Assembly: GCA_963790025.1 (NCBI GenBank)
Contig: CAWBMP010000004.1
Location: 512,001 to 576,000 of the forward strand
Reading direction: 5' to 3'
Source: Nitrospirota bacterium
GTDB lineage: Bacteria; Nitrospirota; Thermodesulfovibrionia; Thermodesulfovibrionales; Dissulfurispiraceae
Length of the DNA stretch: 64,000 nt
A program made the position numbers and the translations under genes. The notes below the pieces were generated by a model. It ran no database searches and was not told the origin of the DNA. It saw only the letters and a list, made by a program, of their open reading frames with translations. Below, in pieces: positions 1 through 5,418 of this stretch (positions are counted from its first letter, which is position 1; each line of letters opens with the position of its first letter).

Positions 1-601
1 GAAGGTCATCCGTGCTGGTCAGAAATCCAAGAAACCACATATTGTCGGCCTCACCGGTAATCTCCAGAAGTCCCGGACATACAGCGTGAAGATCGGCCTG
101 TAGGTTGTTTACTACCCGTACTCGCTCATCGACCAAACGACGCCGGCGCCGTGATAGCCGCTTTAGAATGTCGTTGTCCCGCGGCGTTTTGCGTACCTCC
201 TGCAGCACATCCTTGGCTATCGGCAGATGATCTCGAAGCTGAAAAAGCTCCAGTCCTTTCCTTGCGTCGATTGCATCGGTCTTCGCGGCACCGGGGAATA
301 TCTCCTTGAATCGAGCAAGCTTGAGATTGTTGATATTGAAGAGGCGATAATTGCGGGCTCGAACGAGCGTGTCCAGCGGACGTGCGTAGCCGTTGAAGCC
401 CTCCATTGCTACGGCAACGGGACAACTAAACCTTTGCTCCTGCTTCTCGATGCGACAGAAGAATTGCCGGAACCCTTCAGGTTCATGCACGATTGAGAAT
501 TCATCGAGGACTTCACCGCTGGATAGGCCGATTGCAACGTTGTGACTGCGGCAGCCAATATCGACGCTTACACGCAGTTCGAGGGGATCATCTTTTTTCA
601 T
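1..601 (-). CDS. IS110-family recombinase/transposase, N-terminal 200 aa (runs off the window start)
   Basis: Manual translation from ATG 601 (RBS AAGGAG) is open to base 1: MKKDDPLELRVSVDIGCRSH...VAVAMEGFNGY...AAKTDAIDARKG...LSRRRRRLVDERVRVVNNLQADL. This has the DEDD tetrad D14/E67/D109/D112 followed by the coiled-coil typical of IS110. Absent from the ORF track because it has no stop in the window. Confidence 0.95.
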   Translation of the reverse strand, partial: MKKDDPLELRVSVDIGCRSHNVAIGLSSGEVLDEFSIVHEPEGFRQFFCRIEKQEQRFSCPVAVAMEGFNGYARPLDTLVRARNYRLFNINNLKLARFKEIFPGAAKTDAIDARKGLELFQLRDHLPIAKDVLQEVRKTPRDNDILKRLSRRRRRLVDERVRVVNNLQADLHAVCPGLLEITGEADNMWFLGFLTSTDDL

Positions 602-625
602 GTAGTCTCCTTTGCAGACAAGATT

Positions 626-817
626 ATCATCCTCAGGTCTCGTCTACTTACAGAGCCACATTTGGCACCATCCCGGTCGACCCTTTTGAGGATGATGCAG
701 ATGACGGAGGCGGCATTTCAGACTCAAGTGAGCCTGAATGAACAGGCCACTGACCCCACAAGCCACACCCCCGTTAAGCATATCTTACATGAATAAAGCT
801 GCCATAGTCATCTGCAT
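626..817 (-). ncRNA. Predicted IS110 bridge RNA (target-binding loop ~704-774, donor-binding loop 626-696)
   Basis: Stem ACGGGGGTG/CGCCTCCGT encloses an internal loop capped by hairpin AGTGGCCTG-TTCATT-CAGGCTCACT. A perfect 10-bp stem ATCATCCTCA/TGAGGATGAT encloses a second internal loop. Loop strands match the flank and the element end. Confidence 0.8.
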
Positions 818-900
818 AAATCCTATGGTAGACCCCATTGTTTCCGTTTAAACCTATATCTCCCCCTTGTCACTTGCGTTAACAGCCACAAACTTGACTA

Positions 901-2964: not shown

Positions 2965-3570
2965 CTAGAAGGCGAAATCGCACTCTGCCTGTCTGCAGCT
3001 CTTTGCCGCCTTTATGACCTTTTCTGCCGAATCGAACCCGAGCGCCATCATTTCCCGCAACTGTATCTGAAAGATCTGTGCGGCAAAGAAGGCATCTGCA
3101 GCGGCATTATGCCGGTAAGACCGTTGCAGGCCATAAGCCGCCATCATACCGTCAAGGCTTAAATCCTTTTCTTCCATTTTCCGTTTTCGCCTCAGCCAGC
3201 GCTCCACCATTGCTATGTCTATAAGATCTCTTTTGAATTTCACTCCCAAGGCCTTGAAATTTGTTTTCAAAAAAGTGAAATCAAACTCGACAGTATGGCC
3301 AACGAGTATGCCATCGAGGACCTTAAGAATCCGGTCCGAGACCTCCTCAAATACCGGCGCATCCATGAGATTGTCCTTGCTTATCCCGTGGTACCTCATT
3401 GCTTTGTAGTCGTAACTTTTAGGTTTAATCAGGGTGTAAAAAGTATCCCGCACAAGGATTTTTAAATTAATAACAGGTACACAGGCGAAGGATATAATCT
3501 CATCCTTGTCGAAGTTTAATCCTGTTGTCTCGATGTCAATGGCATAAAATTGGGCAGTTTTCAAGTCCAT
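2965..3570 (-). CDS. DEDDh 3'-5' exonuclease (DNA pol III epsilon-like)
   Basis: DIETTG, GHTVEFD and HNAAADA motifs; usual partner of the adjacent DUF294 protein. Confidence 0.9.
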   Translation of the reverse strand: MDLKTAQFYAIDIETTGLNFDKDEIISFACVPVINLKILVRDTFYTLIKPKSYDYKAMRYHGISKDNLMDAPVFEEVSDRILKVLDGILVGHTVEFDFTFLKTNFKALGVKFKRDLIDIAMVERWLRRKRKMEEKDLSLDGMMAAYGLQRSYRHNAAADAFFAAQIFQIQLREMMALGFDSAEKVIKAAKSCRQAECDFAF

Positions 3571-3588
3571 GTAACGATGTCTTCCAAC

Positions 3589-5418
3589 CTATAGTTGACT
3601 ATACATTATTGTTCGACTAACGTCATATCTTTTCATCAGGAACTTCTGAAATTCAGAGACGATCTTAAGAGACTCCTTCAGTATGAGCAAATCGACCTGT
3701 GACAGTTCCTTTGAGGCGACCAGATTGTCCATAGCAGACTGATTCAATACCGTCCGTGCCTGATGTCTCAGCCTTAACCCCTGCAAAAAACCGAACGACT
3801 CGATAAGATCGTGGCACATTTGCCCGCTGATCGTTGCGTTGGCGCTCAACGCCTCCAATCTCTCTCTGGTGTTGGTCCTCGCCCATATCCCGCTGTCTAT
3901 AGCGAGGACCCTTGCGCCGTTAACAATCGGATAAATACCATAGGTCTTCAGGTCCACACCCTGACGCAGACCTAATATTCCGAATATTCCAAGTGGAGGC
4001 CTGATTTCAATCGCATCTTCAGCCATCAGCTTCAGGGCCTCGGCTTTCACTAAGTCCTTAATCGACTCCAGCAAGTCGTCGTACAGGTCTGTCTCCCCGT
4101 ATACAGGTCTCATATCGAGAAACACGGAGAGGTACCGGAGATGAAAAGGGATCGGGTCTGAAAACCACTGTTTAAAGTATTCTCTCCACACCCGCAGGGG
4201 TTGATTCCACATGCTGTTGGATGCCATGTAGTTTCCGCGGCATTTGGGAACCCCGATGACAGCCAACGTTTCACTAATATCGTCGGCTAATGTTACGGGG
4301 ATGTCTCCTTCGTAAATTATAGCGTTGTCCTGGTCGGTCCCGATGATCTCTTCTTTTCTGCCGGAACTGCCCATATGCATCCACAGGAACTGAGCAGGAG
4401 CATGTCTGCCGATAAGTATCTCAATGACCTTGGACACTACAGCGTCATGAACAGTGCATAACATCCTGGTCAGGTCATAGAAATTAGGACCCGACATCGC
4501 AATCTTTGAGACTGATACCCTGAGACTGTCAAAAACGGTTTTGAGCTCGTCTATAGAAGTTGCCCGATTGATCCTTCTGAAAAGCTTCACTATGGAGAAG
4601 GAGGGTTCCAGATGGACCTGAATGTCCTTTCTTGTGATAATACCGCAGACCTTATCGTCTTTAGTGACAACAAGGTGGTCTATTCCGGCATCGATCATTT
4701 TTGTAAAGGCATCGAATATCGTTGCCTGCGCGTCTACTGTCTTAACAGGAGATGACATGAACCCGGTAACAGGGTCCAGCCTGTCGCCCCGGATCAATAC
4801 CTTTCTCAGGTCCTCATCGGTCAGTATGCCGACCGGCTTTGCATCATTGTCCACAATGATGATCGAACTGACCGAATTCTTGTCCATCTCAGAAGCAGCG
4901 CTTAGTATCGTAATATCAGGGCTGCAAACAATAGGTTTTTTATATATAATCCTCTCAACCTCAAGAACGAATGAGGCCTCCTCAAGGATCTTCTTGTCAG
5001 ATGCAATGGTCTTGAATGACCGGAGTCTCCTGTTGATTAAAGTCGAGAAAAACAATGCAAATCTCTCATTGGCATCGAAGACAGCCTTAAATTGCCGGTA
5101 AGCTACCGAATAGCAAACGGTGTCCTCGATCGCCCTGGCAGTCGTATTCAACAGGCGTCCAAAAAGTGATATAATGCCGAATATCTCGCCTCTTGCAAGG
5201 TAGTCGACTACTGTTTCGTCATCATAGAGGCCGACAAGTCCGGAGAATATCAAATAAACGTATTCAGAGGTCTGTCCCTTTTTATAGATTGTCTTCCCTT
5301 TTTCAAACAACTCGACTTCTAATCCGGATATTATGATGTCCAGCTCATTTTCCGACAAAAAGGAAAAGGGACGTATCTTGCGTATAAACTCCTGCGGTGG
5401 AATCATCAATAATATCAT
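3589..5418 (-). CDS. cNMP-binding + CBS + DUF294 putative nucleotidyltransferase
   Basis: N-terminal cNMP domain, CBS pair, MGSSGRKEE...TDQDNA, FLDMRPVYG, DLKTYG...T.ERL. Confidence 0.9.
   Translation of the reverse strand: MILLMIPPQEFIRKIRPFSFLSENELDIIISGLEVELFEKGKTIYKKGQTSEYVYLIFSGLVGLYDDETVVDYLARGEIFGIISLFGRLLNTTARAIEDTVCYSVAYRQFKAVFDANERFALFFSTLINRRLRSFKTIASDKKILEEASFVLEVERIIYKKPIVCSPDITILSAASEMDKNSVSSIIIVDNDAKPVGILTDEDLRKVLIRGDRLDPVTGFMSSPVKTVDAQATIFDAFTKMIDAGIDHLVVTKDDKVCGIITRKDIQVHLEPSFSIVKLFRRINRATSIDELKTVFDSLRVSVSKIAMSGPNFYDLTRMLCTVHDAVVSKVIEILIGRHAPAQFLWMHMGSSGRKEEIIGTDQDNAIIYEGDIPVTLADDISETLAVIGVPKCRGNYMASNSMWNQPLRVWREYFKQWFSDPIPFHLRYLSVFLDMRPVYGETDLYDDLLESIKDLVKAEALKLMAEDAIEIRPPLGIFGILGLRQGVDLKTYGIYPIVNGARVLAIDSGIWARTNTRERLEALSANATISGQMCHDLIESFGFLQGLRLRHQARTVLNQSAMDNLVASKELSQVDLLILKESLKIVSEFQKFLMKRYDVSRTIMYSQL

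Follow-up and report, generated by a model that had tools for sequence, protein, structure and literature searches.

The systems closest to the one reported here are the insertion sequences IS621 and ISCro4 (IS622), which, according to passages of their reports, combine a recombinase carrying the PF01548 and PF02371 domains with an RNA encoded in the left end (PMC11208160, PMC11208158, 10.1101/2025.05.14.653916). This RNA presents a target loop followed by a donor loop, each built as stem, left guide, hairpin and right guide, and acts around a 2-nt core (PMC11208160, PMC11208158). The same systems are described as having a position-7 handshake geometry, a promoter at the circle junction, a repeated intergenic target and a left donor in which position 7 is tolerant, and the element analysed here resembles them in its repeated target and tolerant position 7 and is predicted to do so in the handshake and the junction promoter. 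Homing to other mobile or repeated DNA is also a known habit of the IS110 family (PMC11187229). In the relevant passages of that source, IS4321 and IS5075 insert into Tn21 terminal repeats, ISKpn4 and ISPst6 into attC, ISPa11, ISPpu9 and ISPpu10 into REP or intergenic repeats (ISPpu9 and ISPpu10 from a listing and an abstract), and ISEc21 into IS3 transposase codons.

We analysed a stretch of 64,000 nucleotides (the window) from a Nitrospirota bacterium (assembly GCA_963790025.1, contig CAWBMP010000004.1, positions 512,001 to 576,000). The element and its parts lie on the minus strand, and coordinates that start with C2, C3, C4 or C5 refer to contigs of the source genome. The left edge of the window very probably carries part of an intact insertion sequence of the IS110 group, whose left end encodes an IS621-type bridge RNA programmed to the repeat ends of TIRYT elements. 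A preliminary description of this DNA had already proposed an RNA-guided IS110 recombinase whose bispecific bridge RNA is encoded in the left end, with the target loop in module 1 and the donor loop in module 2, and this outline held; its class, core and target loop stand, while one of its four guides had been misread and both the terminal-repeat target and the junction promoter were missing from it.

The limits of the element were read from six near-identical copies in the source genome, which are 1,464-1,465 bp long and differ at 3 alignment columns. Measured from core to core the window copy is 1,465 bp, of which 1..832 falls within the window and the rest extends past the left edge to C4:511368. 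In all six copies the element starts TC-TACCATAGG behind a flank ending in GGG and ends CAGCGGGATGT-TC ahead of AG(A/G)CTT, the left junction reading (G)GG-TC-TACCAT and the right junction CGGGATGT-TC-AG(A/G)CT. The left copy of the core (TC, 831..832) is common to both junctions in the six copies, and beside it lies the left target half AATGGGG (833..839), which empty sites and terminal repeats identify as the outer part of a TIRYT element's terminal inverted repeat, which the insertion has divided. At the far end of the element are the left donor CGGGATGT (C4:511377-511370) and the right core TC (C4:511369-511368), both read in the six copies. The site reconstructed for the window copy has identical empty counterparts, for example at C4:1215130, C4:1222712 and C5:249364, with one core where occupied sites have a core at both junctions, as is a feature of IS110. 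The layout is likewise that of IS110, with a long left non-coding end (229 nt) and a short right end (about 32 nt past the stop codon). Taken together, the copy ends and the identical empty sites give TC as the core, 830/831 as the boundary, approximately TGGGG-TC-AG(A/G)CT as the target and CGGGATGT-TC-TAC as the donor. The six copies thus confirm the boundary and the core at 832-831 given in the preliminary description, and the right flank it expected, similar to AGAC, is AGACT in one copy and AGGCT, which pairs by wobble, in the other five.

Taken alone the 7-nt match to the flank word TGGGGTC (837-831) is weak evidence, since it turns up in 4.4% of 5000 shuffles; the four junction words, picked after the sequence was seen, came up together in 0 of 5000. 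Two of the six copies (C4:1511276-1512740 and C5:250341-251805) lack the same single base, so that the recombinase gene goes out of frame near codon 215-230; this is either decay or an assembly error. In the plasmid collection all relatives were below 60% identity. Further into the window, at 2965-5418, the neighbouring genes presumably encode, judging by motifs, a protein of 609 aa that resembles CBS-domain nucleotidyltransferases and a 201-aa 3'-5' exonuclease.

The recombinase gene starts at 601, so that its 5' half occupies 1..601, and is preceded by a ribosome-binding site read as AGGAG at 607..611; in the genome it ends at C4:511402 and encodes 399 amino acids. Both PF01548 and PF02371 scored above the Pfam cut-off, and the NCBIfam profile NF033542 (IS110 family RNA-guided transposase) reached 164.6 bits against a cut-off of 140. 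The predicted catalytic residues D14, E67, D109, D112 and S322, of the DEDD/Ser type, are invariant in 26 of 26 aligned proteins, and with these profiles they secure the membership in the IS110 family that had been proposed from the DEDD recombinase. The protein aligns to IS621 across the C-terminal domain. A single-sequence search of solved structures with the recombinase returned no match, and the ten best fold matches of the predicted model (mean pLDDT 77.5) were all to ISCro4 and IS621, at 14-17% identity. Unlike the proteins of those elements the one encoded here has 399 residues and is 14-17% identical to them in fold alignments; the element is not a close IS621 orthologue. The source genome also contains two distant IS110-like genes (C2:338661-339020 and C3:261022-261492; 26-28% identity in the C-terminal part), the first of which lies about 900 bp from a TIR-like site.

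For comparison we assembled 160 homologous loci, drawing 80 of the 199 confirmed in genomes and 80 of at least 546 in metagenomes. Parsing succeeded for 135 of these and yielded 131 distinct insertions and 114 distinct RNAs; the 25 loci dropped had the donor loop out of view (7), failed on the left-guide register (9) or the target-loop anchor (7), or had no N-terminus (2). Structure covariation was scored on 49 diverse aligned ends against 500 shuffles and slid controls, guide-flank agreement by permutation tests of 5000 shuffles, and the number of events on a quick tree of 108 proteins.

The 229-nt left end folds with z = -3.85, and none of 200 shuffles folded as well. Across the 49 ends two-sided changes were seen in 20 of 37 pairs, a level reached by 0 of 500 shuffles, and 97% of cells were paired in the proposed structure versus 37-49% in the slid controls. 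The fold score and the covariation confirm the two modules of stem, internal loop and hairpin drawn in the preliminary description, and the strings quoted there do occur at 760-752 (TGTGGGGTC), 726-718 (TGAGTCTGA), 686-679 (AAAGGGTC), 647-642 (GTAGAC) and 837-831 (TGGGGTC). Two conserved stem-loops with internal loops, a feature of IS621-type bridge RNAs, are therefore present. In the consensus fold the target-binding module (703..775) consists of covarying helices, with an outer stem at 774-768/710-704 and an inner hairpin at 751-727. The donor-binding module (627..695), also of covarying helices, has stems at 695-690/632-627 and 682-679/639-636 and an inner hairpin at 666-655. A 5' enclosing stem (816-810/702-696, spanning 696..816), with two-sided changes in 4 of 5 pairs, surrounds the target-binding module, and in this pairing of its 5' segment around the target loop the RNA differs from those of IS621 and ISCro4. 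Rfam gave no match at E up to 1. In homologues L075, L076, L069 and L078-L083 the left end is longer, with additional sequence ahead of the target loop, which in L075 and L076 includes a long palindrome.

The match between target loop and target that characterises bridge RNAs is present, strong on the right and weaker on the left. The right target guide AGUCU-GA (718..724), which would pair TC-AG(A/G)CT, covaries with the flank at positions 10-14 over the 131 insertions, with 348 of 455 matches versus 251 in shuffles (0/5000), and the signal persists when each distinct guide is counted once (76/110 versus 53, 0/5000). Loop strands that covary with the flanks had been set as a test in the preliminary description, and on this side they do. 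Mismatches at positions 11-13 lean toward G-U/G-T wobble, and position 14 is looser. We also considered a nine-base right target guide, all nine bases of which pair by wobble in five of the six copies and eight of nine in the sixth; since positions 15-16 do not covary with the guide (28/182 versus 34 shuffled), it was dropped and is not claimed.

The left target guide UGUGGGG-UC (752..760) rests on match counts and permutation tests. At positions 4-7 it matched the flank in 362 of 416 cases (391 with wobble), position 3 was partly read (54/104), and positions 1-2 matched in 56 of 208. Positions 3-9 are thus apparently read and positions 1-2 not, giving a working target of approximately (T)GGGG-TC-AG(A/G)CT; module 1 is the target loop, as first described, and the longer target TGTGGGG-TC-AGAC assigned to it was overstated by two guide letters. 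Overall the left guide agreed with the flank in 471 of 728 comparisons versus 447 shuffled (0/5000), and its covariation at positions 1-3 vanishes once distinct guides are counted (631/5000), which counts against the model. Recognition would thus cover about 5 bases on the left, which is short, and 5 on the right, which is long, by comparison with IS621 and ISCro4. In homologues L110, L111, L007, L112, L107 and L062 the left target guide has CC or UU at the core positions despite a TC junction.

On the donor side, the right ends of the six copies and invariant RNA columns point to CGGGAUG-G-U (667..675) as the left donor guide. Its first seven bases (675-669) equal the right end CGGGATG, position 7 is mismatched, and a U then stands for the first base of the core. 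Module 2 thus has GACCGGGATGGT as its true left loop strand, with CGGGATG invariant in the 49 ends, and the segment matches the right end in 102 of 102 loci, a match that is partly built into the parser and independent in the six genomic copies. The preliminary description had instead taken AAAGGGTC as this strand, a reading in which TC closes both left strands and AAAGGG-UC is the left donor guide, with AAAGGG-TC-TAC as the donor. That wiring has some appeal, as AAAGGG-UC shares its terminal TC with the left target guide and sits just inside the outer stem of module 2, yet it is almost certainly wrong. Its own prediction was a right end AAAGGG-TC, and the six copies all end CAGCGGGATGT-TC, which makes the donor CGGGATGT-TC-TAC; in none of 102 loci does the homologous segment agree with the right end; and GGTC (682-679) pairs with GACC (639-636), three of these four pairs showing two-sided changes, while AAAG (686-683) is a variable bulge, with 35 different 8-mers in 131 rows. 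Against our preferred guide, CGGGAUG-G-U, stands the mismatch at position 7 in all 102 rows, although the same position is the tolerant one in IS621 according to a passage of PMC11208160. Among the homologues we found no compensatory change in this guide, the few variants of donor or guide at positions 0, 2 and 6 being uncompensated.

The right donor guide GUA-GA (643..647), which would pair TC-TAC, was placed by its concordance at position 12, seen in 118 of 118 rows (103 C/G and 15 T/A). The change was compensated in all 15 rows that carry it, representing one or two events on the quick tree. The donor loop is therefore complementary to both strands of the joined ends, with covariation at one right-donor position only. 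Since the donor guides barely vary, the covariation evidence here is thin, and a reading is conceivable in which the RNA is mainly a single target-seeker (a seekRNA), module 2 being structural or regulatory and the donor ends being recognised by the protein. Passages of PMC11187229 are in line with this in that target matching is the feature traced in the RNA of ISEc21 and IS1111 members. Module 2 nevertheless carries both donor halves on the expected strands and at the expected positions, and the sole donor change is compensated wherever it occurs, which leaves the seekRNA model very improbable and favours a donor loop that reads both ends. One homologue, L092, lies in a donor-like site, with a left flank ending GGGATGT-TC and a right flank unlike the target guide, as expected from the donor-donor recombination described for IS621 and ISCro4.

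The last C of GTAGAC, which had been quoted as the right strand of module 2, does not fit a donor guide base, unlike the GUA-GA before it; it fits a handshake base that would meet target position 7 after strand exchange. By the geometry described in passages of PMC11208158, the candidate donor-loop handshake bases are CG (641..642), with 642 opposite target position 7 (G), and the candidate target-loop handshake bases are AA (716..717), with 717 opposite donor position 7 (T). The donor-loop base pairs in 114 of 118 rows, where the guide is invariant, and the target-loop base in 78 of 102, staying A, uncompensated, in the 24 rows with donor A. The candidate handshake bases are thus complementary in the window element, with no compensation in homologues.

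The core is TC in all six copies and in the homologues, and not the CT of IS621, which puts a C where IS621 orthologues keep a near-invariant T. In passages of PMC11208158 the second core base of these orthologues is almost always T, which IS621 reads through the protein backbone, and GT, AT and TT cores work. These functional cores with a near-invariant T raise the question of whether the register is shifted by one base, so that the core is an ordinary xT, read as GT in the target and as TT or AT in the donor, with the C behind it common to both. Such a register fits neatly with the left donor guide CGGGAUG-GU, seven matches followed by GU, and with a donor position 7 that alternates between T and A without compensation. 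We nevertheless regard it as decidedly unlikely: unequal cores would leave a mismatch to be resolved either way, yet among 122 right junctions none had G at position 7, and T occurred there in 2 of 125 left junctions, a donor-like site and a probable mis-parse. Moreover the spacing of the target loop (a nine-base guide, one linker and an invariant hairpin G-C) equals that of IS621 in the TC register only, and this register gives position-7 handshake pairs in both loops where the shifted one gives none. With TC as the core, the residues behind the catalytic glutamate become of interest: G68, N70, G71 and Y72 are invariant in the 26 aligned proteins, and it is our guess that they explain the different core preference.

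The right donor would also extend into a promoter element. TAC(CAT) forms the -10 box TACCAT (825..830) of a predicted circle-junction promoter, whose -35 box TTGAAA stands at the right end (C4:511390-511385, six copies); in all six copies joining the ends would place TTGAAA 17 nt ahead of TACCAT. Among homologues TTGAAA occurs in 82 of 102 right ends and TACCAT or TATCAT in 116 of 118 left ends, the -10 letters being partly required by the parser. A -35 box with at least five of six matches was found at the 17-nt spacing in 85 of 102 loci, and in 0, 0, 1 and 0 at spacings of 15, 16, 18 and 19. A circle junction is therefore predicted to form a TTGAAA-17-TACCAT promoter, an arrangement described in passages on IS621 (PMC11208160) and ISEc21 (PMC11187229). 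A promoter scan of the linear element gave 3 sites versus 2.5 expected, none of them at the left end, and no circle joint was present in four contig sets, a type of data that drops rare forms. A soil RNA contig from a 90-95% identical relative covers the left end only; as it runs into the flank, we set it aside as evidence for the bridge RNA.

What the target guides read became apparent from the flanks. In all six occupied sites the right flank continues as a conserved TIR-like tail, and in the source genome this tail forms 28-31-nt inverted repeats that start GGGGTCAG around intact genes for 306-residue proteins. These proteins class as REP-associated tyrosine transposases, falling 3 bits short of the NCBIfam cut-off, with a Y1_Tnp domain and a weak Bac_DnaA_C match. 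In passages of earlier work, the elements formed by TIRYT genes, or TIRtrons, have repeats that share GGGGWSAS (PMC3733652), and TIRYT corresponds to RAYT subclass 2.1 (10.1101/279083). The intact copies in the source genome show the defining arrangement of TIRtrons, a RAYT-like Y1 transposase between GGGGWSAS terminal inverted repeats, and resemble subclass 2.1 in the weak C-terminal DnaA-like helix-turn-helix as well (PMC3733652, 10.1101/279083). Judged from these repeats, the guides are most likely programmed for the GGGGTCAG end of the inverted repeats that bound TIRYT (RAYT subclass 2.1) elements, which would make the insertion sequence a parasite of another mobile element's ends that lands between genes.

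The window copy interrupts the left repeat of a TIRtron derivative that carries a deletion but retains a 24-codon stub and the opposite repeat, and two more copies lie in right repeats beside TIRYT coding sequence. Only three of the six copies thus adjoin recognisable TIRYT coding sequence, the other three being in TIR-like solo or short repeats. The copy at C2:40053-40137 occupies one arm of a short inverted-repeat unit, with its partner about 80 bp away and a variant tail; the unit has no transposase and is like a miniature element. Several near-identical TIRtrons (over 90% protein identity), full-length and deleted, are found at C4:1206597-1222712, C5:55798-56780, C5:248907-250343 and C5:494852-495419, which suggests recent TIRYT mobility in this genome. 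In the TIRtron at C4:1209017-1211460 the transposase gene is interrupted by an element with a gene for a 432-residue transposase-like protein.

Among the homologues, GGGGWSAS was matched in full by 42 of 92 reconstructed targets and by 74 when one mismatch was allowed, the core letters being fixed by the parser. An inverted partner of the target was present within 1.2 kb at 12 of 64 loci versus 1 of 64 for a control word. A TIRYT-like gene lay alongside 20 of the 116 loci with enough flank, on the 3' side in 19 of the 20, against a background of 1.65% of 20,000 random points taken in the source genome only; in the other 96 no such gene was present in the flanks available. This absence invites the view that the TIRYT link is incidental, the guide reading a short motif of which TIRYT ends are the commonest matches, with no lasting specialisation. 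In the source genome 15 of 19 free sites with the full motif are TIR-like anyway, so that six of six occupied sites require no determinant beyond the guide, and one that we considered is unsupported for the same reason. Even so, we consider an incidental link unlikely. The left guide GGGG-UC has been kept over several phyla, down to 55% protein identity, and the right guide tracks repeat variants; the flanks keep T at position 15 (80%) and at positions 20-21 (56-68%), where the guide does not covary; and TIRYT genes occur at roughly ten times the background rate, on the inward side in nearly every case. These observations favour a guide specialised for TIRYT repeat ends.

By analogy with IS621, the ends of the element would join into a circle reading ...CGGGATGT-TC-TACCAT..., whose junction would assemble the TTGAAA-17-TACCAT promoter and drive both the RNA and the recombinase gene. 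The bridge RNA encoded in the left non-coding end would be about 190 nt long (roughly 818-625). Its loop 1 would read (T)GGGG-TC on the bottom strand of the target and TC-AG(A/G)CT on the top strand, loop 2 would read the donor as CGGGATG and TC-TAC, and the DEDD/Ser recombinase would exchange strands around TC.

As this mechanism has already been published, the locus itself is no surprise. Unlike IS621 and ISCro4, the element targets a TIRYT terminal repeat and not REP. With IS4321/IS5075, ISKpn4/ISPst6, ISPa11, ISPpu9, ISPpu10 and ISEc21 it shares a guide tuned to a conserved site in some other element, and it differs from these in its target family and in an RNA located upstream, as in the IS110 group. 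For ISPpu10 a folded-target determinant is reported, whereas we have no evidence of one for the window element. Insertion of IS110 elements into TIRtron repeats goes unmentioned in the matching text of PMC3733652, where IS110 occurs 0 times, and of 10.1101/279083, where it occurs once. A search of the literature found no description of a TC core for a bridge RNA or of a TIRtron target for IS110; ISfinder and preprint supplements were outside its scope, and a listed member of the clade is possible there. Motifs of the clade were absent from the searchable supplements of PMC11187229 and had a single match, outside a bridge-RNA context, in those of PMC11208160. On balance we lean towards a cross-phylum clade far from IS621, with a natural TC core and recognition of about 5 bases per side, that is a specialised parasite of TIRtron repeats.

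If this is true, the clade would provide a ready-made bridge system orthogonal to IS621 and ISCro4. According to a passage of 10.64898/2026.04.29.721476, giving co-expressed bridge RNAs orthogonal cores eliminated their cross-talk but lowered efficiency, and a recombinase whose natural core differs could be considered for multiplexed editing; the donor and target strings, now worked out exactly, open the system to direct tests. For the biology of the family, the terminal repeats of TIRtrons would join the list of mobile-element sites to which IS110 elements home. As the insertion splits the conserved GGGGWSAS motif, it offers a natural handle on the function of these poorly understood repeats, and the clade, if real, would represent a mobile element whose RNA guide lets it follow the ends of another and perhaps put them out of action.
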